A stretch of DNA of 64,000 bases. It comes from Verrucomicrobiia bacterium (GTDB lineage Bacteria > Verrucomicrobiota > Verrucomicrobiia > Palsa-1439). This document shows positions 4,982 through 29,903 of the stretch, in pieces (positions within the stretch are counted from its first letter, which is position 1; each line of letters begins with the position of its first letter). The stretch covers positions 12,303 to 76,302 of the forward strand of contig JBEKFI010000006.1 of assembly GCA_050013395.1 (NCBI GenBank), in the 5' to 3' direction. The translations under genes and the position numbers were made by a program. The notes below the pieces were generated by a model that ran no database searches, was not told where the DNA came from, and saw nothing but the letters and a program-made list of their open reading frames with translations.

Positions 4982-7018
4982 ATGCCTTTTGATGCCTCGA
5001 AAGTTCGTGCCGTGGCTGTCGTCGGCCACGCTTCCAGTGGTAAAACTTCACTCATCGACAGCACGCTGTTCATGGCCAAAGCCGTGCCCACCCACGGGCG
5101 CGTGGCCAACGGCACCAGCGTCGCCGATTGTTTGCCCGACGAAATCGAGCGTAAAATCACGATTCACGCCAAACCGCTGCACTGCAAATGGCAGGATTAT
5201 CAGGTTTACTTGCTCGACACGCCCGGCGTCGCCGATTTCTACGGCGACACGATGGCGGCAATCCGTGCCGCCGATGCGGCCATCGTTGTCGTCGATGGCG
5301 TCAACGGCGTCGAAATCGGAACGAGGCGCATTTGGAAACTGCTCGACGAGATGCAAAAGCCGCGTCTGATCTTTGTCAGCAAGCTGAACAAGGAAAACAG
5401 CGATTTCTTCCGCTGCATCGAACAGATCAGGGGCGCCTTCGGCAAGAACTGCATTCCGTTTGAGCTACCGGTCGGCAAGGAGGCGGGCTTTTCAAAGGTT
5501 GTGAACCTGCGCACGACGCCCGAAGCGGAAGTGCCTGCCGAATTGCGCGACCAATTCAAGAGCGCCCACGACAGCCTGGAAGAAGCCGCCGCTGAGCAAG
5601 ACGACAAGCTGCTGGAAGAATACCTCGGCGGACAGAAGCTCACCGTTGACGAAATCACCAATGGCACGCGCGTCGGCGTGGCCCGCGGCGCAACGGTCCC
5701 GATTTACTGCGGTTGCGCCGAGAAGGAAATTGGGTTGCGCCAATTGCTTGACGGCGTCACGGCGTTGCTTCCGTCGCCGATTGACCGCGGACCCGTATCA
5801 TCCGAAAACGGCGAAAAGATTGAGCCCAAGGCCGACGCGCCGTTCAGTGGATTTGTCTTCAAGGCGACAGTCGATCCGTACGCCGGTCATCTGGCCTACG
5901 TGCGGGTGTACTCAGGGACGTTGCGGGCCGACCTGGATGTGTTGAACGCGACGCGCGGCGGCAAGGAACGCGTGCCGCAACTGTTGCGGCTGCAGGGCAG
6001 GACCCAAACGGTCGTCGCCGACGCGGGCCCGGGCGAGATCGTTGCGCTGGCCAAACTCAAGGACACGCACATCAACAACACGCTGTGCGATCCGTCGCGA
6101 AAAATCACTTTCCCGCCGATCCGGTTCCCGCGGCCGGTGATGAGTTTTGCGGTTCATCCGCACACGCAGAAGGACGAGGAAAAGATCAGCCTCGCCTTGC
6201 ATCGGTTGATCGAAGAAGACGCCACGTTTCACATGGAACGCAATCCCAACACCAAGGAGTTGGTCATCTCGGGCATGGGTGACATGCATCTGGCGGTCGT
6301 GGTGGACAACCTGAAACGCAGACTCGGCGTCAACGTGGATCTCAGCACGCCGAAGGTCGATTACAAGGAAACCATCACGGGGCGCGGCGACGGCCATTAC
6401 AAACACAAGAAACAGTCCGGCGGTCGCGGCCAGTATGGCGAAGCGTACGTCAAGGTCGAGCCGCAGGAACGCGGCAAGGGATTCGAGTACGTGGACGAGG
6501 TGGTCGGCGGCGCGATCCCGCGCAACTTCATCCCGGCCGTCGAAAAGGGCTGCGTGGAAGCGATGCTGGGCGGCGTGGTGGCCGGCTATCCCGTCGTGGA
6601 CGTGCGGGCGATTGTCTATGACGGCTCCTATCACGACGTGGACTCCAGCGAAATCAGCTTCAAGATCGCCGGCCTGCACGCGTTCAAGGACGCGATGAGC
6701 AAGGCGCGGCCCGTGTTGCTCGAGCCGATCATGAACGTCACCGTCTATGTGCCCGATCAATACATGGGCGACATCACCGGCGACCTCAACCACCGTCGCG
6801 GCCGCATCACGACCGTCGAACCGGCCGATGGCCTGCAAGCCATCAAGGCGCAGGTGCCGCAGGCCGAGGTTTTCAAGTACTCCAGTGAACTCCGTTCGAT
6901 GACGGGCGGCCGCGGAAGCTTCGAACTGGAGTTCTCGCACTACGAACAGGTCCCGCAGCACATCGCCCAGAAGGTCATCGCCGAAGCCCAAGCCGCCAAG
7001 AAAGCCGAGCAGGAGTGA
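4982..7018 (+). CDS. Elongation factor G family translational GTPase (EF-G paralog)
   Basis: G1 motif AVVGHASSGKT, DTPG, NKLD-like; EF-G domain IV/V-like C-terminus. Total length 678 aa. Confidence 0.8.
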   Translation: MPFDASKVRAVAVVGHASSGKTSLIDSTLFMAKAVPTHGRVANGTSVADCLPDEIERKITIHAKPLHCKWQDYQVYLLDTPGVADFYGDTMAAIRAADAAIVVVDGVNGVEIGTRRIWKLLDEMQKPRLIFVSKLNKENSDFFRCIEQIRGAFGKNCIPFELPVGKEAGFSKVVNLRTTPEAEVPAELRDQFKSAHDSLEEAAAEQDDKLLEEYLGGQKLTVDEITNGTRVGVARGATVPIYCGCAEKEIGLRQLLDGVTALLPSPIDRGPVSSENGEKIEPKADAPFSGFVFKATVDPYAGHLAYVRVYSGTLRADLDVLNATRGGKERVPQLLRLQGRTQTVVADAGPGEIVALAKLKDTHINNTLCDPSRKITFPPIRFPRPVMSFAVHPHTQKDEEKISLALHRLIEEDATFHMERNPNTKELVISGMGDMHLAVVVDNLKRRLGVNVDLSTPKVDYKETITGRGDGHYKHKKQSGGRGQYGEAYVKVEPQERGKGFEYVDEVVGGAIPRNFIPAVEKGCVEAMLGGVVAGYPVVDVRAIVYDGSYHDVDSSEISFKIAGLHAFKDAMSKARPVLLEPIMNVTVYVPDQYMGDITGDLNHRRGRITTVEPADGLQAIKAQVPQAEVFKYSSELRSMTGGRGSFELEFSHYEQVPQHIAQKVIAEAQAAKKAEQE

Positions 7019-7158
7019 TCGGCACAGGGGCAACTCAGCGATACATCGGTATCCGATGTATGCCGTCGTCACGTCATCGCCCGTCCTGGGGAATACCGAC
7101 CCAATCTCCGCTTCGCGCTCACGTACCGGCTAACATCGTCAAATGGAGAATAGATAGA

Positions 7159-7668
7159 TCAGACCCCGGTCTGTCCATATAGTGTATAGCTCGGGCCGCT
7201 CCCAACGGGTGACAACGGGATGGCTTGTCCGTCGAAGCTCACGGCAAAACTGGCTCCCAACCACGGGAACACTTCCAACTGAATGGACTTGGCACTCACC
7301 GGAACCAAACCGACTTGGGCCAGGGAAGCATCGAGGAGGTCTGATGAGTCGCGGGTAAATGGGTTACCCCCGCATTGGAGAAGCGCAGTATATTGGCCTT
7401 GGATGATACCACCATAGGGCCAATCCGGGCCAAAGATATCGATGCTGGCATCTCCGAGTGTGGAGTTATTCTGCAACACTTGAGTGACTTGATTGGTGCC
7501 GAGATAGCCCGTCCAGTGTGGAATCGCGTCCGTAATCGGCACGAAGCCTCCATACTGAACTGGCGCGAGGTCGGCATCTTCAAAATCGAGATTTTGAAAG
7601 GTCTGACGCAATAGGCCGGACGTGCAACTCAGGTACAACACCAAAGAATAAACTAACCCTTTCCTCAT
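7159..7668 (-). CDS. PEP-CTERM-family paralog, C-terminally truncated (lacks the PEP-CTERM anchor)
   Basis: Signal peptide MRKGLVYSLVLYLSCTSG and TFQNLDFE/LPGW/GTNQ motifs are shared with the two upstream paralogs. The ORF stops before the PEP-CTERM region. Confidence 0.45.
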   Translation of the reverse strand: MRKGLVYSLVLYLSCTSGLLRQTFQNLDFEDADLAPVQYGGFVPITDAIPHWTGYLGTNQVTQVLQNNSTLGDASIDIFGPDWPYGGIIQGQYTALLQCGGNPFTRDSSDLLDASLAQVGLVPVSAKSIQLEVFPWLGASFAVSFDGQAIPLSPVGSGPSYTLYGQTGV

Positions 7669-7709
7669 CACCGACCTCGCAAGGGACAATACTCGTTGCC
7701 CGGAAGTTT

Positions 7710-8411
7710 TCACGCGGCCCGGCGGTAGGTCAAACGCCACAAGCCAAGCGCCGCGACTCCGATCACCAGTAAACTCAAACCACTCGGTTCAGGAATCGGG
7801 TCAGGCGAGAACTCGATGGAATCCAAGGTCAATCCATGGAGTTGGCCCTCGTACGGATTCTGGGCGAACACCGTAAACGTTAACTCAGCCGCTTGCCCTG
7901 CAAATGATGAAATATCGGCTTCGTATAGACTATAGTTTTGACCGGTCACCGGAGAAGAAACCAAGTTGAGACTTGAACCTCCCAAGGATACTGCGAATGG
8001 ACCGAAGGCATTTGCAAGAAAACTCAGCGACTTTGTACCTACCGGAACCAATCCGGTTTGGGAGAGTGATGCATCAGCGGATATCGAAGAACTGCCGAGT
8101 TGAAGACCTGCTTCGAGAGAAAGAGTGTAGTTCCCTTGAATGACCGGAAACGCGCCGCTGGAACTCCAAAGGGCGATACCTGTGGAATCCAAGAAAGCGT
8201 TGTCGTACAAAATCCAGTCCAGTTGATTGGTTCCCGAAAACCCATTCCAACCGGGCAACGCCTCGCTGAGGTAAACACCGTTATGAGGATCGCCAGAAAT
8301 TGGGACCAACGTTGCCGACTCAAAGTCTAAATTTGTGAAGGTGCCCGACGCCCACAGAACGGAAGTGCAACTCACATACAACACGAAGGAGCAAACAATC
8401 CCTTTCCTCAT
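7710..8411 (-). CDS. PEP-CTERM sorting domain-containing secreted protein
   Basis: N-terminal signal peptide. C-terminus PIPEPSGLSLLVIGVAALGLWRLTYRRAA matches PEP + TM + basic tail. Confidence 0.7.
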   Translation of the reverse strand: MRKGIVCSFVLYVSCTSVLWASGTFTNLDFESATLVPISGDPHNGVYLSEALPGWNGFSGTNQLDWILYDNAFLDSTGIALWSSSGAFPVIQGNYTLSLEAGLQLGSSSISADASLSQTGLVPVGTKSLSFLANAFGPFAVSLGGSSLNLVSSPVTGQNYSLYEADISSFAGQAAELTFTVFAQNPYEGQLHGLTLDSIEFSPDPIPEPSGLSLLVIGVAALGLWRLTYRRAA

Positions 8412-8451
8412 CCATCACCTCGAACAGGACAATACTCGTTGCCCGCTGTTT

Positions 8452-9129
8452 TCACGCGGTCTTGCGATAAGTCACGCGCCAACAGCCAAGCGCCACAACT
8501 CCAATCACCAGTAAACTCAAACCACTCGGTTCAGGGATCGGCTGGGCGGCGAACGAGATCGCGTCAAGATCGCATGGGGCGCTACCGTGAGCGGTACCTA
8601 TCGTGAATCTCATTTCTTCAACAGAGCCCGCAAACGAGGAAATATCACAGCCGAAGAAGCCGGAGCCAAGTGGAAATACCGTTGTATTTTGACTACCAAC
8701 CGTAACAGTCAGGTCATTCGTATAAAACAACCTGGCTTCAAACTGGAGAGAATTCGCCCAAACGGGGATCAGACCCGTCTGGGCGATGCTTGCTGGCTGT
8801 GCTCCTTCGTTTTGAGTGCCTCCAGCTTGGAGGATTGCTGTGTAGGTCCCCTCAAGCGGCTGGTAACCGAACGAATACTGAGGCCCCATAATGCCGACGT
8901 TGGCATCGCCCAGTGTAATGGCGTTATGCCCTACTTGGGTGAGTTGTTTCGTGCCGATGTACGCTGACCAGCCGGGAAGTCCATCCGAAACGGACACAAA
9001 TTCCTCGTAATCGGGAGGCAAATTGCTGACGTTAGCCGACTCGAAATCGAGATTTTGAAAAGTCTGTGCCCGAAGGGCAGAAGTGAAGCTTACACACAAC
9101 AGCACAGCTAGAACAATTCCCTTTCTCAT
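8452..9129 (-). CDS. PEP-CTERM sorting domain-containing secreted protein
   Basis: C-terminus PIPEPSGLSLLVIGVVALGCWRVTYRKTA. Paralogous to 7710..8411. The 5' leader is conserved among the three paralogs. Confidence 0.7.
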   Translation of the reverse strand: MRKGIVLAVLLCVSFTSALRAQTFQNLDFESANVSNLPPDYEEFVSVSDGLPGWSAYIGTKQLTQVGHNAITLGDANVGIMGPQYSFGYQPLEGTYTAILQAGGTQNEGAQPASIAQTGLIPVWANSLQFEARLFYTNDLTVTVGSQNTTVFPLGSGFFGCDISSFAGSVEEMRFTIGTAHGSAPCDLDAISFAAQPIPEPSGLSLLVIGVVALGCWRVTYRKTA

Positions 9130-9381
9130 CACCGACCTCGTAGCGCACAATACTCGTTGCCCGCCAGTCTCGCAAGCCAGAACTGGAGCGGGCAGAGACT
9201 GTGAGGTTCGATCTCGCACATTAGTCGCTCCGAATGTTGTTTGTTGAAACCTTGAACCCATTGGCTTGCCCACACGGTGCATACTGGCGTCGATGAGCCG
9301 CGGCTACATCTCACCGAGCAGCCGGCCGTACCTATTTCGGGTGTGACCACTTGAATAAGTGCGCGCTGGATACGTCTATCG

Positions 9382-12117
9382 GTGCGATTACACCTCGGAG
9401 GACATGAAGCCGGACTTGGATTGACGATGGAGCGATTTCTTGCTACAGGTATTGTCAGCAAGTTGCCAAGCCGAGGAACCATTCTCGAAGGCGAGGATTT
9501 TGTGCCAGGACCCCAAATCATCGAAGCGCCAGCGCCCCTTGTTACGGCCAAAGCCGTCAACGAAGGTGGCGTAAGCAGCGTATCCCCGCAGGCTGTTGTC
9601 CCCGCCGAGCGGGTGCTGACGGACGGAAAGTTCTTCCGCATCGGGGCACAGAAGTTTTACCCGAAAGGCGTCACCTACGGCACGTTCAAGCCCGATGCGT
9701 CCGGGTGCACGTTCCCCAAGCCGGAACAGGTGGAGTGGGACTTCGAGTTGATCAAGCAACTCAATGCCAATTGCGTCCGCGTTTACCACGTGCCGCCGCG
9801 CTGGTTCTTGGATTTAGCGCAGCAGCATGGGCTGAAGGTACTGATTGATTGCGTCTGGTCCAAGCACACCTGTTTCCTCGATGACCCCGAGACGATGGAA
9901 AACGCCCGACGCGCCGTGCGCCAAGCGGCGGAAACGGTGGCGGGCCATCCGGCGGTGTTCGCGCTGGTGCTGGCCAACGAGATTCCGCCGGACATTGCGC
10001 GCTGGTACGGCGCGCGCCGGATCGAAAGCTTCATCGACGACCTGGCGGCCATCGTGAAACGAATCGATCCGCAACGGCTGGTCACCTTCGTCAATTTCCC
10101 GCCCACGGAGTTCCTCCGCCCCAGCAGTCTGGACTTTGTCAGCTTTAACGTTTACCTGCACGAGCAGCGGCCGTTCTCAAACTATCTGGATCGACTCCAA
10201 AGCATCGCGGGCGACAAACCGCTGGTGCTCGCGGAGTTCGGCATCGACTCGATCCGCGAGAGCGAAGAACGCAAGGCGCAGATTCTGAGCAGCCACATCG
10301 AGATCGCCTTCCGCGCCGGGCTGGCCGGTACGTTCATTTTTGCCTTCACCGACGATTGGCACACGGGTGGTCACCAAATTGAAAACTGGTTCTTCGGGTT
10401 GACCGACCGCGAACGGCAGCCACGCCGTTCGTATCACGCGATTGCCGAGCAGTACAAGCGCGCCCCGCACTTTCCGTTGCCGGATTACCCAAAGGTAAGC
10501 GTCGTGGTGGCGAGCTACAACGGCGGGCGGACTCTGCCCGCGTGCCTGAATTCGCTGACGCATCTGAATTATCCCAACTACGAGATCATCCTCGTCGATG
10601 ACGGCTCGACCGACGACACGGCGAAGATTGCCTCGCATTACCCTTCAGTGCGAACGATTCATCAGCCCAACCTTGGCTTGAGTGCCGCCCGCAACACAGG
10701 CATTGCGGCGGCTGAGGGCGACTTGATCGCTTTTACCGACAGCGATTGTCGCGCTGACGAAGACTGGCTTTACTATCTCGTTGGCGACCTGCTGAAGACA
10801 GACGCCGCCGCCATTGGCGGTCACAACTTTCCTCCGGCGGAGGACGACTGGATTGCGGGCGCCGTGGCGGTTTCGCCCGGCGGCCCAGCGCACGTCATGC
10901 TCGATGACCGCAACGCGGAGCACATCCCCGGCTGCAACATGATGTTCTGGAAGTGGTCGCTCGAGGGGATCGAAGGATTCGATCCGCAATACCGCGCGGC
11001 GGGCGACGACGTGGACGTTTGCTGGCGGCTGCTGCAACGCGGATACAAGATCACCTTTTCGCACGCCGGTTTCGTCTGGCATTACCGCCGCAACACCTTC
11101 GCCGCCTACTTGAAACAGCAGCGCGGCTACGGCGTGGCCGAGGCGCTGCTGCGCTACAAACATCCTGAATACTTCAACAGCCTCGGCGGCATGCGCTGGC
11201 ACGGTCGGATTTACAATCCGACGCGGGCGGCGGGCGCGTTCGGGCGGTTCGTGATTTATCACGGCATCTTCGGCAGCGGCCTGTTTCAAACACTCTACAC
11301 TCCCGAACCAGCCGGATTGCTGCCGATCCTGACCAGCCTGGAATGGCACGTGTTGTTTACGTTGGGCGGGGTTTTGCTGGCGATGATGTGGCCGGCGCTC
11401 TGGCCACTGCCGGCACTAACGCTCCTGGCGAGCCTGAGTGCGGCGGCGCTGGCTGCCGCGCGCGTCGATCTGCCTCCCTGGCAACGGCGCATCTGGTCGC
11501 GGCCGCTCGTCACCGGATTGTATTTGCTTCAGCCGATCGTGCGCGGTTGGCCAAGGTACGCGCATCGATTGCGCCGATCGGAGACGCCGACGACGGCGCA
11601 CGCGACGGTGAGAGAGTTGGCCGAGCAGTACGACGGCGTGTCGAGCATTCACACGGTCAATTACTGGAACGAGCAGGGGATCGAACGCGTTGCTTTTTTG
11701 CAGAAGCTTTTGGAGGTTCTGGAGCGCGACCAGTGGCAGGCCAGCGCCGATAGCGGTTGGGACGAGCATGACGTGACGATTCACGGCGACCGCTTCACCA
11801 AGGCTGTCGTCAACACCGTTTGCGAAAACCATGGCGGCGACAAGCGATTGCTGCGGGCGCGATTGTGCGCCCGCTGGACACTGCTGGCGAAAGTGCTGCT
11901 GTGGACTGACGTCGCGCTGGTGGCGCTCTTCCTCGTGGTGGCACAGCATGCCTTGTGGGCGCTATCGGCGTGGTTGCTGGTGGTGCTGGTGGCGGCGTAC
12001 CTGCATTTGCGCTCGCATCGCACGTTGCGGTTGGCGATTGCCCTCTTGGATGTGACGGCGCAGCAGATGGGACTCACCAAGCTCACGGCTCCGAAAAAGT
12101 TTGAAAAGCCCGCGTAG
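9382..12117 (+). CDS. Fusion protein: clan GH-A (TIM-barrel) glycoside hydrolase domain + family 2 glycosyltransferase + C-terminal multi-TM region
   Basis: GH-A catalytic motifs LANEIP and LAEFG. GT2 motifs VVVASYNGG, ILVDDGSTDDT, FTDSDC. Several hydrophobic helices at the C-terminus. Start codon uncertain (possibly 9427). Confidence 0.65.
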   Translation: MRLHLGGHEAGLGLTMERFLATGIVSKLPSRGTILEGEDFVPGPQIIEAPAPLVTAKAVNEGGVSSVSPQAVVPAERVLTDGKFFRIGAQKFYPKGVTYGTFKPDASGCTFPKPEQVEWDFELIKQLNANCVRVYHVPPRWFLDLAQQHGLKVLIDCVWSKHTCFLDDPETMENARRAVRQAAETVAGHPAVFALVLANEIPPDIARWYGARRIESFIDDLAAIVKRIDPQRLVTFVNFPPTEFLRPSSLDFVSFNVYLHEQRPFSNYLDRLQSIAGDKPLVLAEFGIDSIRESEERKAQILSSHIEIAFRAGLAGTFIFAFTDDWHTGGHQIENWFFGLTDRERQPRRSYHAIAEQYKRAPHFPLPDYPKVSVVVASYNGGRTLPACLNSLTHLNYPNYEIILVDDGSTDDTAKIASHYPSVRTIHQPNLGLSAARNTGIAAAEGDLIAFTDSDCRADEDWLYYLVGDLLKTDAAAIGGHNFPPAEDDWIAGAVAVSPGGPAHVMLDDRNAEHIPGCNMMFWKWSLEGIEGFDPQYRAAGDDVDVCWRLLQRGYKITFSHAGFVWHYRRNTFAAYLKQQRGYGVAEALLRYKHPEYFNSLGGMRWHGRIYNPTRAAGAFGRFVIYHGIFGSGLFQTLYTPEPAGLLPILTSLEWHVLFTLGGVLLAMMWPALWPLPALTLLASLSAAALAAARVDLPPWQRRIWSRPLVTGLYLLQPIVRGWPRYAHRLRRSETPTTAHATVRELAEQYDGVSSIHTVNYWNEQGIERVAFLQKLLEVLERDQWQASADSGWDEHDVTIHGDRFTKAVVNTVCENHGGDKRLLRARLCARWTLLAKVLLWTDVALVALFLVVAQHALWALSAWLLVVLVAAYLHLRSHRTLRLAIALLDVTAQQMGLTKLTAPKKFEKPA

Positions 12118-23344: not shown

Positions 23345-24181
23345 CTACAGATAAGTTAGCAGCGACACCACCGCCGAGATCACAAACAGGCCCGCGACGG
23401 AGCGGGTGAGCGCCCGTTGCGTGGCCCGCGGGATTTCCGTGACCGACCCGCCGACGCCCAGCCCGCCAATGCAACAGGACGCACCGGCAAACAGGGCGGG
23501 CAGGATGCTCTTGGCGAGGATGCTGAACACGTCGTTGGGGCGAACCGCGCTCGACACGGTGTCCGTAAATAACAGCAAATCGCCACTGCCTTTTCCGACC
23601 CATGCCGCGAACACATAACCGCTCGCAAACGCGACCAGGATAAAGATGATCGTCAGGCAAAACGTGGACACGGCCACGCCCAGCACGCGCGGCATCACCA
23701 GATACAGGAACGGATCGCTCCCCTGTGCTTCGAGGGCGTGAACGTCCCCGTTGATTTTGAGAACGGCCAGTTCTGTCGCCATCGCACTGCTGCTGCGCAC
23801 GATCACCACGATGTTGGTCAGTACCGGACCGAGTTCGCGCGCCACGACCGCCACCAACAGCGGCCCGAGCAGTTGTGATTGTCCCGCTGCGCCGACCCAG
23901 AAAGAGAGCTGCACCACCACCGAAATACCGACAAACACCGCCACCCCGCAGACAAACCCGAGCGGTTCGACTCCGATAGCCAGGACCTGCCGCGCCAACA
24001 TGTTCCGCACCGTGCGCACCCAGGACCGCGGTCGAACGCCGACGTACAGGACTGTCCCAATCACCGCCGCCGCATGCCGCAACTCGTCCCACTGCGTCCA
24101 AGCCATCTCCCCCAATCTGCCAATCGCACGCATGAATGGATTCCGAAACTCACCTGCCACTTCGGTTATTCCTACAAACAT
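23345..24181 (-). CDS. MlaE-family ABC transporter permease
   Basis: Multi-TM permease with MlaE-like conserved segments. Adjacent to and co-oriented with mlaD. No MlaF ATPase gene is nearby. Confidence 0.7.
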   Translation of the reverse strand: MFVGITEVAGEFRNPFMRAIGRLGEMAWTQWDELRHAAAVIGTVLYVGVRPRSWVRTVRNMLARQVLAIGVEPLGFVCGVAVFVGISVVVQLSFWVGAAGQSQLLGPLLVAVVARELGPVLTNIVVIVRSSSAMATELAVLKINGDVHALEAQGSDPFLYLVMPRVLGVAVSTFCLTIIFILVAFASGYVFAAWVGKGSGDLLLFTDTVSSAVRPNDVFSILAKSILPALFAGASCCIGGLGVGGSVTEIPRATQRALTRSVAGLFVISAVVSLLTYL

Positions 24182-24668
24182 AGCGCTTGTCTCAGTCTAC
24201 AATCACCTGCTCGCCGTAAAGCCAAGTGGGATGGTTATTCAGTTACTAAGTCTTCATGATGTTTCGACCTGCTGGACGGTTCTTAACCATCCCTTTTCCA
24301 CCACGCCCCTTGGCCGCGCGCTTTTTAGCTGCAGTCATCCTGCCGCCTCTGCTTTTCTTTGCCATATGCAATCACCCCTTCCCTTGTTGCGTTGTTACGT
24401 TTTCCATTACGAAGCATGCTAAGTCGTGGGCTGGCCCTTCGCTATGGGGTGTATACCCCATAGACGGCTTGCCGACGACGCCCTCCAGTTTCTCCAACAA
24501 CAACCCTGGCCCGGTAACGCAAACCGGGCGTCAAGCAGGCGGTGGCTGAAGTCGAACCGCGAGAGTCAACCCTTCTGAGCGAATCGCGGCGCAGGCGTAC
24601 CGGCAGACGTACCGGCATTCAATCGCGGGCTGGTTCGCCGAAGGAGAGCTTGCCCCGACCGGCTCACC

Positions 24669-25724
24669 TTGGCATACTGCGTACCGATGGCTGCGAGTGT
24701 CGCACTTGTAGATTTAGGTGAAACCGTTGACCTAGCGAGGGTGGCGGCGACGGATCATCTTGACCCAGAAAGGCGGGCCGAATTGGGGCAAGTCCTAACG
24801 CCGCATTTCGTTGCAAAGTTGATGGCAGACAGGCTGTCACTGCATCGTTCCTCAATTCGTTTGCTCGATCCGGGTGCCGGAATCGGGTCGTTGACTGCGG
24901 CTGTCGTCGAGCGGATTCTCCAGAGTGACCAGCGGCCTACTTCGCTTCATGTGGATGCTTTCGAGATTGATTCGACGCTTGCTGTCCACTTGGATGATAC
25001 GCTGGAACTTTGCGCGAGACACCTTGCAGGAATCGGCGTCTATTTCTCGCATGTGATTCACCGCACGGACTTCATCTCCGATGCAAGTCTGGCGTTGCGG
25101 GATGACCTTTTTACCGGAGAGCGCCAGCGTTACGATGCTGCAATTCTGAATCCGCCTTACCGGAAGATCGCGACGGATTCGGTGGAACGAAGGCATCTTG
25201 AGGGAGTGGGATTGCCGGTCGTTAATCTTTACACGGCGTTTCTCGGGCTCGTGGTGAAGCTGCTGGCGGAGGACGGGGAGTTGGTGGCGATCACGCCGCG
25301 CAGTTTCTGCAACGGTCCATATCACGCGCCGTTTCGCAGGTTTTTCTTGGACGAGATGGCGATTAAGTCCATGCACGTTTTCGAGTCGCGAAAAGCTGCT
25401 TTCAATGAAGCCGATGTCTTGCAGGAGAATGTCGTCATCCATGCCGTCAAAACGAGAATCAAGCCGCAGACCGTGACAATCTTCACGTCGAGCGGCCAAT
25501 CTGAAGACATGGTTGCCTATCACGAAACACTTTATGACAAAATAGTCCTGCCGGACGATGCACAGCGGTTCATTCGGATTGTCGAAGATAGCGTTGACGA
25601 CGAGATTCAACAGCAGCTTCAGGCGCTGCCCTCTCGTCTCGACCATTTGGGACTGTCAGCGTCAACAGGTCGCGTAGTGGATTTTCGCGCAGCGGACTTG
25701 CTGCAAGCGGAATTGAACGCGTAG
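24669..25724 (+). CDS. N6-adenine DNA methyltransferase (gamma-class)
   Basis: Motif I LDPGAGIGSL, then motif IV NPPY about 85 aa downstream. Lower GC than the flanking DNA. Confidence 0.7.
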   Translation: MAYCVPMAASVALVDLGETVDLARVAATDHLDPERRAELGQVLTPHFVAKLMADRLSLHRSSIRLLDPGAGIGSLTAAVVERILQSDQRPTSLHVDAFEIDSTLAVHLDDTLELCARHLAGIGVYFSHVIHRTDFISDASLALRDDLFTGERQRYDAAILNPPYRKIATDSVERRHLEGVGLPVVNLYTAFLGLVVKLLAEDGELVAITPRSFCNGPYHAPFRRFFLDEMAIKSMHVFESRKAAFNEADVLQENVVIHAVKTRIKPQTVTIFTSSGQSEDMVAYHETLYDKIVLPDDAQRFIRIVEDSVDDEIQQQLQALPSRLDHLGLSASTGRVVDFRAADLLQAELNA

Positions 25725-25741
25725 CCTTGGGCGACCGCACC

Positions 25742-26215
25742 TCAGAACGAGATGCTCCATGTCGGGTAGATTCCTTTCGCCCGGGCGAAAATCCGCGCCA
25801 AGTCGATCTCCGTGTGCTGACGCGTTGTGGTGTTCACCAGCACGAACTTGAACTGGCGCTTTAGGCTTTGCGCAACCAGAACCTCCGCGCCTGTGAGGCC
25901 AAAAAAGAATTTCGAGAAGTCAGATCGAAGATTCTTCTTCGTGGACTTTATTTCGAAGACAGTTACTCGGTGGAGATTGGCTTCCACTGACGCCAAGTCG
26001 TCCAAGTTCACTGAACCGGTTACTTTAACAATGTCGAACGCCTTCCCATAAACGACCTTGCCTTTCTTTGCGAAGGCAACGAGCAGGTTCTGCTTTTGCC
26101 GAGCTGTCGGAATTATAAAACCGGTCTTCTTGGCAACCAGGATGTCGGCGGCTTTCTTGGCGGTCCGTTGACCTGACTGGAAATCGTGTTCTGCGATCTC
26201 GTCCCGTTTGCTCAT
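25742..26215 (-). CDS. Small PD-(D/E)xK-type nuclease; candidate restriction endonuclease
   Basis: D...(V)FEIK motif (NLDDLASVEANLHRVTVFEIKSTKK). Start overlaps the stop of the upstream HTH gene (ATGA). Convergent with the methyltransferase. Confidence 0.35.
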   Translation of the reverse strand: MSKRDEIAEHDFQSGQRTAKKAADILVAKKTGFIIPTARQKQNLLVAFAKKGKVVYGKAFDIVKVTGSVNLDDLASVEANLHRVTVFEIKSTKKNLRSDFSKFFFGLTGAEVLVAQSLKRQFKFVLVNTTTRQHTEIDLARIFARAKGIYPTWSISF

Positions 26216-26490
26216 CGACTTCTGCCTCGCTCAGCCTTGCTGAAGTTGGAGTACGCGGCTGCAAACTTCTCAATGGTCAATCCCAACGCACCGCAGACTT
26301 GTGCCGTCTCAATAAAGTCCAATCGTCTCTCTCCGGTTTCGTACTTGCTCACGAAGCTCTGGGGAACTTTGAGGCGCTCAGCCAACTCGGCTTGGGTTAA
26401 GCCTTTATCTTCGCGCAGCTTCTTGAGCAGCGCGCAGAATGAATCGTAATCGTCTGTTTGGCTCGCTTTACTCACCCGCCCATAATGCAC
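26212..26490 (-). CDS. XRE-family HTH transcriptional regulator, controller (C) protein-like
   Basis: HTH segment LTQAELAERLKVPQSFVSKYETGERRL. Translationally coupled to the downstream nuclease gene. Start codon uncertain (GTG at 26490 or further upstream). Confidence 0.45.
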   Translation of the reverse strand: MHYGRVSKASQTDDYDSFCALLKKLREDKGLTQAELAERLKVPQSFVSKYETGERRLDFIETAQVCGALGLTIEKFAAAYSNFSKAERGRSR

Positions 26491-26527
26491 GACTTGACTT
26501 GAATAACCCAAATTAGGATATTCGAGC

Positions 26528-27100
26528 GTGCGACGTAACCTACCATTCGACGCCGAAAGCATCCGTGAGACTCTGGAAGCCTTTGTTGAGGCCGGTATCG
26601 CAAAGCGAATCGAGCATGCAGCTCCCGTGAAGTTTTCTCGTCGTGCACGCCGCGCTCTCGTCAGAGCCGTCGTCACCAAATTGCACGCGTGCTGGGCGCC
26701 TGCCGGGCGCGTTCTTTACGTTGGCGATGCCGACACGAAATTTGCCCGCTTTGACAAAAGAGGACTCAGCAAATTGGGTGTGCATCTGGAAGAGCACGGC
26801 AAGATGCCCGATGTCATCATCCATTACACAAAGAAAAACTGGCTCCTGTTGATCGAGGCAGTCACCTCGCACGGGCCGGTGAATCCGAAACGACATCAAG
26901 AACTCAAACGCTTATTCGCGAAGTCAAAGGCTGGACTGGTTTACGTCACGGCATTTCTCACCCGCAAAGAAATGGTCGTGCACCTCGGGCAAATTTCTTG
27001 GGAAACAGAAGTCTGGGTCGCAGAGTCTCCGACGCACATGATTCATTTTAATGGTGAAAGGTTTCTTGGCCCGTACCCTGACTCGACGCCGACCCGCTGA
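26528..27100 (+). CDS. BsuBI/PstI-family restriction endonuclease C-terminal (catalytic) domain-like protein; lacks an N-terminal domain
   Basis: The segment PDVIIHYTKKNWLLLIEAVTSHGP resembles the catalytic core of the BsuBI/PstI family. At 190 aa it is shorter than the ~320-aa enzymes in that family. Confidence 0.3.
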   Translation: MRRNLPFDAESIRETLEAFVEAGIAKRIEHAAPVKFSRRARRALVRAVVTKLHACWAPAGRVLYVGDADTKFARFDKRGLSKLGVHLEEHGKMPDVIIHYTKKNWLLLIEAVTSHGPVNPKRHQELKRLFAKSKAGLVYVTAFLTRKEMVVHLGQISWETEVWVAESPTHMIHFNGERFLGPYPDSTPTR

Positions 27101-27389
27101 GAAGAAACGCCGTCGCGCATCCACAAAATGAGCAAGCACGTTCAACGGTTTGTTGTAACCGCGCATCCCGCGGACACCGGCCATTTGCGTTAACTACACA
27201 CTTCCGAATATTTATGGCGCGACGGAGTGCCCATTCCAACGAGGTAGGGTTTTACCCCATCGACAGATTGAAGCAACTGTCAGACATTGACACAAGATTA
27301 GTGGCTCGCCGACGAGGGATCAGGCGTCCCTGAGGGCGGGACAACAACCGAGGCTGCCTTGGTGGTGGCGCATGAATGCGGGATACACT

Positions 27390-28097
27390 ATGAAGCGAAA
27401 ATTGACCGGGTTATCGCGACGCTATGTGGCGGCGTTGCGAAAACACCTGAAGCAAGGGCCACAGGCGAGCTTGCAGCCGGCGCTTGGACTGGGACGCCAG
27501 GCCGCGGCTCTCGGACTGGAGACGTTGGACGTGGCCAGGATTCACGAGGGAGCACTCGCCACACTGGAAGCATCCAGCAGCAGAGATGGGATCATCAAGC
27601 GAGCGGGGATTTTTTTTGCCGAGGCCATCACGCCGATCGAGAAGACTCATCGCGCCGCGCTCAAGGCCAATGCCCGCCTGAATCAACTGAACAACACGCT
27701 GGGCCGGCGCACGGTGCACCTGGCGGCCTCCAACCGGTCCTTGAAACAGGGGATCGTCCGGCGCAAGGCCGTGGAGCAAGCCCTCAAGAAAAGCGCGGGA
27801 CACTACGCCCGGTTGTTGAAGAAGTCCCGTCGCCTGCAGGAATATTTGCAGCATTTGACCCACCAGATTCTATCGGCGCAGGAGGACAAACGAAAGAAGA
27901 TCAGCCGCGAGTTGCATGATGAAGTCGCCCAGACTTTGTTGGGAATCAATGTCCGGCTGTTGACGTTGAAAAAGGCGGCCGCGGTCAACACGGGGGGCCT
28001 TAAAAAAGAGATTGCCAGCACGCAGCAGCTTGTGGAAAAATCAGTGAAAATCATGAGTCGGTTCGCTCGTGAATTCGGCATCCATAATGAAGCGTAA
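27390..28097 (+). pseudogene. Truncated tandem duplicate of the downstream histidine kinase (sensor + HisKA_3 only, no HATPase domain)
   Basis: N-terminus MKRKLTGLSRRY... and the HisKA_3 region ISRELHDEVAQTL are about 70% identical to 28087..29220. The ORF ends exactly where the 5' leader and start of copy 2 begin. Confidence 0.55.
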
Positions 28098-29220
28098 ATT
28101 GACCGGGTTATCGCGACGATATCAGGCGGCGTTGCGAAAACACCTGGAACAAGGTTCACAGGCAAGCTCAGAGACGGCACAAAGATTCGGCCGGCAGGCC
28201 ATGGCCACCGGGCTGGAGACGTTGGACTTGGCCAGGATTCACGAGCAAGCGTTGATTGCCCTCGTGTTGCCGAGCTACTCCCCCTGCACCCGGGGTGCGA
28301 TGGTCCGGCGGGCGGGAACTTTTTTTGCCGAGGCCATCACCCCGATCGAGAAGACTCATCGCACCGCGCGCGAGGCCAGCGTCCGCTTGAATCAAATGAT
28401 CGAGACGTTGAACCGGCGCAGCGCAGATCTGGACGACTCGAACCGGCAGTTGAAACAGGAAACCGCCCGGTGCAAGTCGGTGGAGGAGTCCCTCCGTAAA
28501 AGCGAGCAACACTACAGCCAGTTGCTGGAGCAGTCGCACCGCTTGCAGGAACAATTGCGGCTTCTGTCCCGCCAGCTCCTGGTAGCGCAGGAGGAAGAAC
28601 GCAAGCGGATCAGCCGCGAGCTGCATGATGAAATCGCCCAGACCTTGACGGGCATCAATGTGCGGCTGGCGGCCTTAAAAATGGAGGCCACGGTCAACAC
28701 CAAAGGCCTCCAGAAAAAGATCACCCGCACACAACGGATGGTGGAGAAGTCGGTGAACATCGTGCATCAGTTCGCGCGAGAATTGCGCCCGGCGGTGTTG
28801 GACGACCTGGGGCTGATTCCCGCTCTTCATTCGTTTGTAAAAAGCTTTTCGAAACAGGCGGGCATCCACATTCGCCTGACGGTTTTTGCTGAGGTTGAAA
28901 AATTGGACAATGCCAAGCGAACGGTCCTCTATCGCGTCGCCCAGGAAGCACTGACCAATGTCGCCCGTCATGCGCAAGCCAGCCGGGTGGACGTGAGCAT
29001 CCGGAAACTCCCGGGCGCTGCTCGAATGGAAATAAAAGACAACGGCAAATCCTTTGAGGCGCAACGCGTCATGGACTCCAAACGGAACACACGCTTGGGG
29101 TTGATCGGCATGCGCGAGCGGCTGGAGATGGTCGGCGGCAGCTTTGGCGTCGAATCGGCGCCGGGCAAAGGAACCACCATCCGAGCACAGATTCCGTTCA
29201 CGAAGGGCAACCGGGTTTAA
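28087..29220 (+). CDS. Cytoplasmic NarL-family sensor histidine kinase (HisKA_3 + HATPase_c)
   Basis: H-box RISRELHDEIAQTL, N-box EALTNVARHA, G-boxes DNGKSF and GLIGMRERLEMVGG. No TM segments. Confidence 0.8.
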   Translation: MKRKLTGLSRRYQAALRKHLEQGSQASSETAQRFGRQAMATGLETLDLARIHEQALIALVLPSYSPCTRGAMVRRAGTFFAEAITPIEKTHRTAREASVRLNQMIETLNRRSADLDDSNRQLKQETARCKSVEESLRKSEQHYSQLLEQSHRLQEQLRLLSRQLLVAQEEERKRISRELHDEIAQTLTGINVRLAALKMEATVNTKGLQKKITRTQRMVEKSVNIVHQFARELRPAVLDDLGLIPALHSFVKSFSKQAGIHIRLTVFAEVEKLDNAKRTVLYRVAQEALTNVARHAQASRVDVSIRKLPGAARMEIKDNGKSFEAQRVMDSKRNTRLGLIGMRERLEMVGGSFGVESAPGKGTTIRAQIPFTKGNRV

Positions 29221-29903
29221 TGTCTATGAAACGCATCACCGTCCTGCTGGCTGAAGACCACATGATTGTCCGCGAGGGGTTTCGGAGGTTGTTGGATGCC
29301 GAAGACGATCTCGATGTGGTCGGCGAAGCGGAGACCGGCCGCCAGGCGGTGGCACTGGCCAGGAAACTTCGTCCCGCCGTGGTCGTGATGGACATCGCGA
29401 TGCCATTGCTCAATGGTTTGGAAGCCACCCGTCAGATTCTCAAAGCCGTTCCCGACACCAAGGTGCTCATTCTCTCCGCGCACAGCGATGACGCGTACGT
29501 CCAGCATGCAACCGAGTTGGGCGCGGTAGGATTTCTGCTCAAACAGACATCCTCGCACGAACTGTCCAAGGCGATTCGGGAAGTGCACAAAGGAAACACA
29601 TTCTTCAGCCCCTCCATTGCCAAGCGCCTCGACAATCGCAATCAGAAGTCGCCTGGTCGAGGAGGACGGCTCAAGAAGAAAGTCGCCCGCCTGAGTTCGC
29701 GCGAGGCGGAGGTGCTCCAACTGATTGCCGAAGGCGAACCCAACAAACAAGTGGCAGGTGAACTGGGCATCAGCATCAAAACCGTCGAGAAGCACCGGCA
29801 GAGTCTCATGCAGAAGCTGAACATCCACGACGTTGCCGGTCTCACGCGTTACGCGATCGGGGCGGGCATCATCGAGAGCAGTGTCCAAGTGACCATCGTC
29901 TAG
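29220..29903 (+). CDS. NarL/LuxR-family response regulator
   Basis: Receiver domain (phospho-acceptor D in VVVMDIAMP) plus a LuxR HTH (LSSREAEVLQLIAEGEPNKQVAGELGISIKTVEKHR). Start overlaps the HK stop. Confidence 0.85.
   Translation: MSMKRITVLLAEDHMIVREGFRRLLDAEDDLDVVGEAETGRQAVALARKLRPAVVVMDIAMPLLNGLEATRQILKAVPDTKVLILSAHSDDAYVQHATELGAVGFLLKQTSSHELSKAIREVHKGNTFFSPSIAKRLDNRNQKSPGRGGRLKKKVARLSSREAEVLQLIAEGEPNKQVAGELGISIKTVEKHRQSLMQKLNIHDVAGLTRYAIGAGIIESSVQVTIV

Follow-up and report, generated by a model that had tools for sequence, protein, structure and literature searches.

The window analysed here is a stretch of 64,000 nucleotides from contig JBEKFI010000006.1 of a Verrucomicrobiia bacterium, and it contains an island of four genes that resembles the remains of a restriction-modification (RM) system (Table 1). 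On the plus strand lie a methyltransferase open reading frame (ORF), here called M or M351, and R190, which encodes a catalytic domain of the BsuBI/PstI/SdaI family. Between them, on the minus strand, are the gene for an XRE-family helix-turn-helix (HTH) regulator and X157, which encodes a putative nuclease of 157 amino acids (aa). These last two genes, referred to below as the cassette, are coupled by an ATGA in which the HTH stop (26212-26214) and the X157 start (26213-26215) share bases. The four ORFs, this overlap, the inverted repeat upstream of the HTH gene and the lower GC content had all been noticed in an earlier sequence-only reading of the same DNA and are present where that reading had placed them.

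Table 1. Features of the island, with positions in the window and the basis of each call
Feature	Position	Strand	Basis
Left island edge, upstream of the M start, still common to closest relatives	24641..24686	+	blastn
M (methyltransferase ORF)	24669/24687-25724	+	ORF call; Pfam
Junction of M remnant and X157 3' end	25725..25741	.	sequence comparison with L030, L110
X157, predicted 157-aa stand-alone PD-(D/E)xK nuclease, distantly NOV_C/DUF3883-like	25742..26215	-	see text on X157
XRE-family HTH regulator, ~92 aa	26212..26490	-	Pfam; starts of homologues
Control region, palindrome within sigma-70-like promoter	26494..26523	.	motif conservation; consensus match
R190, BsuBI/PstI/SdaI-family catalytic domain only	26528..27100	+	PF06616; SdaI alignment; GTG start

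A PstI-family operon with its middle replaced

The intact arrangement can be seen in locus L028, a classical operon from a Nitrospirota metagenome-assembled genome (MAG). There a 506-aa M is followed on the same strand by an overlapping 322-aa R, in which the BsuBI_PstI_RE_N domain (PF17728, an HTH domain according to Pfam) occupies residues 12-149 and the catalytic domain residues 161-314. In such an operon the target-recognition region at the 3' end of M directly adjoins the 5' part of R, which encodes the winged helix-turn-helix (wHTH) recognition domain. When the M of L028 was used as the tblastn query, only its residues 2-335 aligned to M of the window, whose stop codon lies within a few codons of the alignment end, and R190 aligns to residues 192-322 of the L028 R. 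The contiguous M-3'/R-5' stretch has therefore been replaced in the window by the opposite-strand HTH and X157 cassette of about 0.8 kb. The PADLOC profiles give the same picture: MTase_II (PDLC03227) is covered by M at positions 6-324 of 494 only, and of the 840 positions of the M-R fusion model PDLC03359, M covers 9-352 and R190 covers 683-839 with the middle unmatched.

M carries motif I as DPGAGIG (24867-24887) followed by NPPY (25149-25160), which is the gamma order, and it matches the Pfam families Eco57I (E=1.7e-10; 41.7 bits against a cut-off of 25.3) and N6_Mtase. The gamma-class N6-adenine methyltransferase that had been proposed to converge on the HTH-nuclease bicistron is thus confirmed as to family. 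The loss of the N-terminal part of R190 had also been recognized; that M is itself cut short had been missed. About 171 C-terminal residues, corresponding to the target-recognition part, are absent, and M is probably a pseudogene, a 3'-truncated N6-adenine DNA methyltransferase gene of the PstI/BsuBI family (Eco57I-type, gamma-class).

R190 matches PF06616 at profile positions 7-154 of 154 (E=2.4e-52, 176.9 bits against a cut-off of 27), the PADLOC model REase_II at positions 153-315 of 317, and, by phmmer, only residues 147-321 of the 323 of SdaI (PDB 2ixs; E=7e-40). No match to PF17728, the N-terminal wHTH DNA-recognition domain, was obtained with Pfam, which bears out the earlier view of this ORF as the catalytic domain only of a BsuBI/PstI-type enzyme. 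The active-site motif is kept (P94-D95 at 26807-26812, E110 at 26855-26857), together with all the family-invariant residues (PD...EAVTS, SWETEVW, HFNGERF). Moreover, the protein has a new N-terminal segment of about 35 aa, conserved in short forms from loci that are only about 50% identical, and its ratio of non-synonymous to synonymous substitution rates (dN/dS) against close relatives is 0.13-0.17. Because the invariant residues are kept, the new N-terminus is conserved and dN/dS is low, R190 is judged to be a retained recognition-less catalytic domain and not a decaying stump.

Compared with the BsuBI/PstI/SdaI operons, M351 and R190 are homologous to the two genes and keep their order and common strand, and R190 has the invariant catalytic residues; the window differs in lacking the 3' third of M and the wHTH of R (PF17728), in place of which it has the opposite-strand pair of genes. 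The specificity determinants of SdaI were reportedly located in its N-domain by Tamulaitiene et al. in 2006. Since M is without its recognition region and R190 without its recognition domain, the locus is, on this evidence, not a working Type II RM system.

Recurrence of the cassette and its junctions

The counts that follow refer to 91 non-redundant loci with an X157 homologue, smaller denominators being the assessable subsets. The four-gene order of the window is found identically in L003-L006, L013, L014, L016, L017, L020, L023, L110, L111 and others. The description of the island as an RM remnant therefore stands as far as the probable pseudogene M and the lack of an active RM system are concerned, but it has to be revised in that the architecture is recurrent and not a one-off, and in that R190 and the HTH-X157 pair are maintained. 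X157 is intact in 87/91 loci, the HTH gene is intact upstream of it in 75 of the 80 that could be assessed, and the operator described below stands upstream of the HTH gene in 71/75, in most of them at a distance of 21-40 bp. In addition, within groups without any M, dN/dS of X157 is at most 0.1, with saturated synonymous sites. From this conservation the HTH-X157 pair is shown to be selected independently of methylation, and the selected unit appears to consist of R190, the HTH gene and X157, acting without methylation. The sequence-only reading had taken the pair for a "classic C-R" arrangement of a controller gene and an M-dependent restriction endonuclease; the integrity and purifying selection of the pair where M is truncated or absent argue against this.

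The state of M was recorded in the 75 loci with at least 300 bp of sequence downstream of X157. A convergent PstI-type M adjoins X157 in 30 of these. It is near full length in five of the 30, reaching residue 470 of 506, beyond which the ORF reads on in antisense across the X157 end; L099 would be a sixth if counted, its contig breaking off within M. The remaining 25 are truncated at 20 or more different stops, between residues 74 and 404, and in 24 of them the fragment ends no more than 75 bp from the X157 stop. Altogether M is eroded or absent in 70/75 loci.

Within the clade of the window (X157 82-94% identical) the M remnants measure 351 aa in the window, about 263 in L111 and L032, about 121 in L031 and about 95 in L110, and M is absent from the available 341 bp of L030. 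The dN/dS of these remnants is 0.11-0.135, about equal to that of X157, the HTH gene and R190, with a synonymous divergence (dS) near 1. M must accordingly have functioned for most of the history of the clade, and its truncations arose recently and independently. Immediately past the X157 stop, 9 bp (25733-25741, GGTGCGGTC on the X157 strand) are common to the window, L030 and L110, which diverge beyond them. Relative to the window, L110 has lost 813 bp (24920-25732) in a clean deletion whose cassette-side end falls at this same point.

A perfect hairpin with an 8-bp stem, CGCAGGTC-N9-GACCTGCG, was observed in the near-full-M loci L074, L088, L098, L099, L014 and L017. It is situated in the 3' coding end of M, in the first 40 bp or so past the X157 stop. 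L020, L023, L096 and L079 retain 20-50 bp of this stretch and then switch to upstream M sequence. The hairpin may mark a hotspot of deletion, or it may act as a terminator in both directions.

In the loci termed here type B, a class 2 partner gene (see below) is placed beside the HTH gene and is followed by a 5'-cut fragment of a classical R, with M fragments on the opposite side. These R fragments are cut at residue 18, 54, 62, 72, 100, 154, 160, 165, 223, 272 or 280. Such a layout puts the cassette between M-5' and R-3' remnants, with both flanks eroded up to the cassette ends. Relative to the R fragment the cassette has one orientation in the window, L100, L105, L107, L003 and L024 and the other in L029 and L015/L059/L063, so at least two insertion events or an inversion must be assumed. 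L029 (3131-5624), where the cassette is reversed relative to both M and R, is fully decayed: M and X157 are frameshifted, the class 2 partner is broken and the R fragment contains stops.

Other RM genes can also adjoin X157, namely an N-terminal fragment of another N6_Mtase in L092 (by Pfam), a fragment in L001 that motifs and a weak Pfam match mark as a putative methyltransferase, and an NgoFVII-like PLD nuclease in L090. In L004 (4834-7757; also L005, L006 and L034) the entire island from M to R lies between fragments of 76 aa (MmeI_N) and 85 aa (MmeI_C) on the same strand, so that in this lineage an RM operon is nested within another, MmeI-like, RM gene. Such MmeI flanks were considered as a general feature and proved to be restricted to the L004 lineage.

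With its closest relatives the window shares DNA homology only over 24641/24687-27101, and the neighbouring genes differ in every genome. By blastn the homology begins at 24641 for L111, L112, L113 and L032 and at 24685-24687 for L031 and L110, never further left, and ends at 27081-27101 on the right; the island start formerly placed at 24420 has to be moved accordingly. The GC content of the island (24641-27101) is 0.540 against 0.597 for the whole window, in the 2nd percentile among stretches of the same size, as the lower value suggested earlier would lead one to expect. The lowest-GC stretch of the window is found at about 7000-9500 (0.531 in a 2.46-kb frame), slightly below the island, and is possibly another acquired segment. 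No tRNA or Rfam element was found as an integration site, only short repeats at chance level were seen when terminal direct or inverted repeats were sought at the island or cassette edges, and no copies of the cassette were found on viral contigs or phage records.

The roughly 460 bp between an mlaE-like permease gene (23345-24181, minus strand) and the island, at 24182-24640, lack a convincing ORF, a tRNA or an Rfam match and are not homologous to anything in related loci. They include a CTGCAG site (24329) and a short palindrome (24404-24429). Avoidance of CTGCAG was not seen in the window, where 25 sites are present and 18 +/- 3.5 are expected. On the other side of the island, tandem overlapping histidine-kinase paralogues are encoded at 27372-28097 and 28069-29220, the first (241 aa) having RsbU_N and HisKA_3 without an HATPase domain and the second (383 aa) being complete, followed by a GerE-type response regulator at 29220-29903. 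The kinase pair looks like a partial tandem duplication.

The nuclease family, its regulator and the divergent partner

The predicted catalytic residues of X157 are D61 (26033-26035), E88 (25952-25954), K90 (25946-25948) and E111 (25883-25885). A family alignment that includes members as low as 26% in identity shows D61, K90 and F105 without variation and E88 and E111 with almost none. The predicted core is alpha-beta-beta-beta-alpha-beta, with D...(D/E)xK on strands 2 and 3. The protein of the window scores 15.9 bits against NOV_C/DUF3883 (PF13020; E=0.014), under the cut-off of 22.1, and weak matches to this model are obtained for 13 of 42 family members at E<=0.01, the best having E=1.2e-5. 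NOV_C/DUF3883 was placed in the PD-(D/E)xK superfamily by Steczkiewicz et al. (PMC3424549), and in HmaA it is a DNA-nicking domain essential for phage defence, with a D..ExK..E pattern and an Hjc-like fold (PMC11232893). Single-sequence and profile searches of X157 against PDB sequences gave nothing significant; a Foldseek search against PDB gave no match at E<0.06, every weak match being a PD-(D/E)xK protein. Because the D/ExK/E residues are invariant or nearly so and the family has affinity to NOV_C, X157 is assigned as a stand-alone NOV_C-like PD-(D/E)xK nuclease, the fold that had been proposed for it. It resembles the C-terminal nicking domain of HmaA in the D...ExK...E pattern, the Hjc-like fold and the weak PF13020 matches, and differs in being a free-standing protein of 157 aa, not a domain of a helicase or ATPase, and, in the window, in falling below the Pfam threshold.

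The lack of any named restriction endonuclease family for this protein, already remarked upon from the sequence, was borne out, as no model in Pfam, NCBIfam or PADLOC covers the family; it matches no known toxin-antitoxin (TA) toxin family either. X157 has 716 homologues, the best 120 of which show 69-100% identity, and the hosts among the matches listed are Verrucomicrobiota, Planctomycetota, Acidobacteriota and a Betaproteobacterium; these homologues have no Pfam domains. An exhaustive profile search gave 315 clusters at 50% identity, every one of them small and stand-alone.

Distant members of the family are found in other contexts. On a plasmid of Sphingomonas sp. AP4-R1 (NZ_CP053347; L115, 24-2876) an operon encodes, in this order, an Eco57I-type M, a 304-aa protein and an X157-like protein that is a true family member (hhalign probability 99.2%); the 304-aa partner was considered as a relative of the PstI-type enzymes and is not one. 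On pAvCG78b of Agrobacterium vitis (L114, 1-4420) an X157-like gene comes last in the operon, after a methyltransferase gene and a ResIII helicase gene. These two operons may be RM-like systems using a separate nuclease subunit. In Photobacterium kishitanii (L120, 2624-10115) a gene of the X157 subfamily precedes ORFs of 163 and 219 aa without assigned function; there is no methyltransferase, and the genes stand between an AAA_15/AAA_21 ATPase gene and a SIR2_2 and DUF87 pair, in a defence-island-like neighbourhood. Such contexts fit a nuclease module that acts in trans in RM or defence systems, which does not fix the role of X157 at the window locus.

The maximal ORF of the HTH gene is 26212-26679 on the minus strand, homologues favouring a start (GTG) near 26490. 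The product belongs to the XRE type, as had been supposed, with HTH_3 at E=1.3e-12 and also HTH_31 in Pfam, the HTH domain being at about 26266-26427. Its best NCBIfam matches are Y4mF/HipB/MqsA-type antitoxins, all below threshold, and its PADLOC matches are HTH_VI, CapH and Control_protein, the latter weak (E=1e-5 to 4e-3). The inverted repeat noticed upstream of this gene turned out to be a conserved operator motif. In the window it is the imperfect palindrome GAATAACCCAAATTAGGATATTC at 26501-26523, which occurs there only once, with 0 chance matches expected; the family consensus is ATATCC(C/T)A(A/T)TTTGGGTTAT on the HTH strand, 20 bp and palindromic. A putative sigma-70-like promoter directed towards R190 has TTGACT at 26494-26499, a spacer of 17 nt and GATATT at 26517-26522, 6 bp before the R190 start. 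The operator motif falls in the spacer of this promoter.

Among the loci with enough upstream sequence, an ORF with PF06616 only, confirmed by Pfam, diverges from the HTH gene in 60/83 (72%). Two classes of these partner genes can be distinguished. Class 1, to which the window belongs, has KMPDV...EAVTS...SWETEVW as in the classical enzymes; in class 2, PD is changed to P(N/T/S) and SWETEVW to PWGTxAW, and the class 2 proteins are probably catalytically dead. In L012, L057, L060 and L091 the divergent partner is not PstI-type but another conserved protein of about 120-170 aa (KGYTKxGKRIIGTYDLIPATAF...) without a Pfam match.

The possibility that catalytic-domain-only PstI-type ORFs are all by-products of the cassette was discarded, as L116 and L118 carry them cassette-free. 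In L118 (2431-5498) and L116 (3191-5543) a complete M of 565 or 548 aa is followed, after a gap of 160-360 bp, by a catalytic-domain ORF of 165-180 aa, and in L118 an 88-aa HTH gene is divergent from M. These short ORFs represent a separate route to a recognition-less R, probably through frameshifted R genes. A neighbour-joining tree of the R catalytic domains was too coarse to distinguish a single from several origins of the short forms.

Interpretation of the locus

The reading favoured here, with a probability of roughly 0.5, is a composite one, in which a PstI-family operon has had its middle replaced and an HTH-repressed nuclease module serving in defence or addiction has resulted. The architectural part of it is held much more firmly than the functional part. 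The HTH protein would bind the palindrome, which lies within the putative R190 promoter and directly precedes the HTH gene; from this position of the operator it is proposed that the protein autoregulates the HTH-X157 bicistron and represses R190. X157 and R190 would be the effectors, the latter with a newly gained N-terminus and start codon directly beside the cassette operator. The three genes could thus form a nuclease module kept in check by the HTH protein and independent of protective methylation; as a defence or toxin-like (addiction) unit it would fire upon loss of repression.

Several points weigh against this composite. In the clade of the window the signal of purifying selection is equally strong for the M remnant, so part of that signal pre-dates the decay. 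No PstI-type partner is present in 23/83 loci, so the HTH-X157 pair is able to occur by itself and R190 may be dispensable. About half of the partner genes, those of class 2, have lost the catalytic Asp, so cleavage need not be the role of the partner. The R190 promoter is a consensus match only, in a Verrucomicrobial MAG. Any interaction of X157, R190 and the HTH protein is hypothetical, and no fusion of X157 (Rosetta stone) was found when sought among the 315 clusters. Finally, the defence role of X157 is deduced from context, PADLOC having no model for it.

It is unlikely that the pair is a plain type II TA system, with an XRE antitoxin and X157 as nuclease toxin, inserted in an RM operon of which R190 and M351 would be functionless relics. 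The antitoxin-first gene order, the 4-bp overlap, the palindromic operator in the pair's own promoter, the small size and the wide horizontal spread across phyla with very high conservation are all shared with TA systems of the XRE/HipB type, and the sub-threshold antitoxin matches of the HTH protein, the independence of the pair from M and the loci without a PstI-type partner agree with it. Nevertheless, a third gene is usually present, divergent under the same operator, in the form of the PF06616-only ORF; R190 of the window has its catalytic residues, a conserved new N-terminus and a low dN/dS; and X157 belongs to no known toxin family.

Quite unlikely is a selfish mobile cassette, formed by HTH-X157 and usually the PstI-type catalytic gene, that would invade RM operons at the M/R junction. 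It would repeatedly land in or home to PstI-family and other gamma-methyltransferase operons and destroy both specificity domains. X157 would then be a homing-type nuclease whose DNA break would promote insertion, or else the deletions of flanking sequence that are anchored at the X157 3' end, and the recognition-less or dead PstI-type domain would be a decoy poisoning the leftover resident endonuclease, so that the host survives the loss of methylation. RM complexes are said, from comparative work by Kobayashi and colleagues, to behave as mobile or rearranging units inserting into other RM genes. The insertion in an RM operon, the nesting and the variable flank loss are indeed features in common with such insertions and with free-standing homing endonuclease genes; the cassette differs in not being an RM system, in having no methyltransferase and in that no target site was found for it. 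The presence of both orientations between M-5' and R-3' fragments can be explained in this way, as can the flanks cut at many points yet always adjoining the cassette ends, the junction 9 bp past the X157 stop reused by three close relatives, the other RM gene fragments beside X157 and the Asp loss in class 2 partners. However, neither an empty target site nor a target sequence, terminal repeats or a recombinase turned up, and no copies were seen on viral contigs or phage records; the second orientation could be due to an inversion in place; and the M remnant of the window's clade co-diverges with the cassette at dS near 1, which in-place deletions fit better than fresh insertions.

Distinctly improbable is a decaying C-protein-controlled Type II RM system in which X157 would be the matched restriction endonuclease (Esp1396I-like), R190 an older PstI-type leftover and the locus inert, because the decay normally takes the endonuclease first and here it is M that is lost and X157 that is kept, under strong purifying selection even in groups without M; these are the strongest arguments against it, and loss of M beside an active matched endonuclease would moreover be lethal. 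With the C-controlled systems (Esp1396I, PvuII) the locus shares a small XRE HTH gene overlapping a PD-(D/E)xK gene, an upstream palindrome and a convergent M, a layout known from Esp1396I; the five non-redundant loci (six with L099) that keep most of M, the distant relatives following methyltransferase genes on the Sphingomonas and Agrobacterium vitis plasmids and the CTGCAG count, which fits an inactive system, can be added in its favour. It differs from those systems in that M is dispensable and usually truncated, a second nuclease gene stands under the same operator, X157 is in no known restriction-enzyme family and the operator is unlike the classic C-boxes, which are of the form GACT...AGTC.

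Two further proposals were set aside. An inversion in place of the operon's own middle, which would make the minus-strand genes the inverted recognition region of M and wHTH domain of R, was rejected, given that the HTH protein is a clear XRE/HTH_3 protein and that X157 has a nuclease fold and resembles neither of the missing parts. X157 as a specificity subunit shared by M and R is not supported, in view of its invariant nuclease triad and its persistence without M.

Judged by Pfam, NCBIfam, PADLOC and the literature that could be searched, the X157 family, its operator, its regular association with a recognition-less PstI-type domain and its repeated placement where the middle of PstI-family operons has been deleted are new; the component superfamilies, and the insertion of elements into RM loci in general, are known. 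Annotation pipelines call these genes "BsuBI/PstI family restriction endonuclease" or "methyltransferase", labels under which the locus would be mistaken for an RM system. X157 belongs to a family for which there is no model and yet ranks with the best-conserved genes of these loci, and together with the shared operator and the recognition-less PstI-type cleavage domain it makes a compact three-gene module that is directly testable. The recurrent deletions of M anchored at the 3' end of the cassette are a noteworthy pattern by themselves. If the defence or addiction module proposed here is correct, an RM operon would have been turned into a nuclease system that works without methylation; should the invasive alternative be true, these loci would record a mobile element preying on RM systems.

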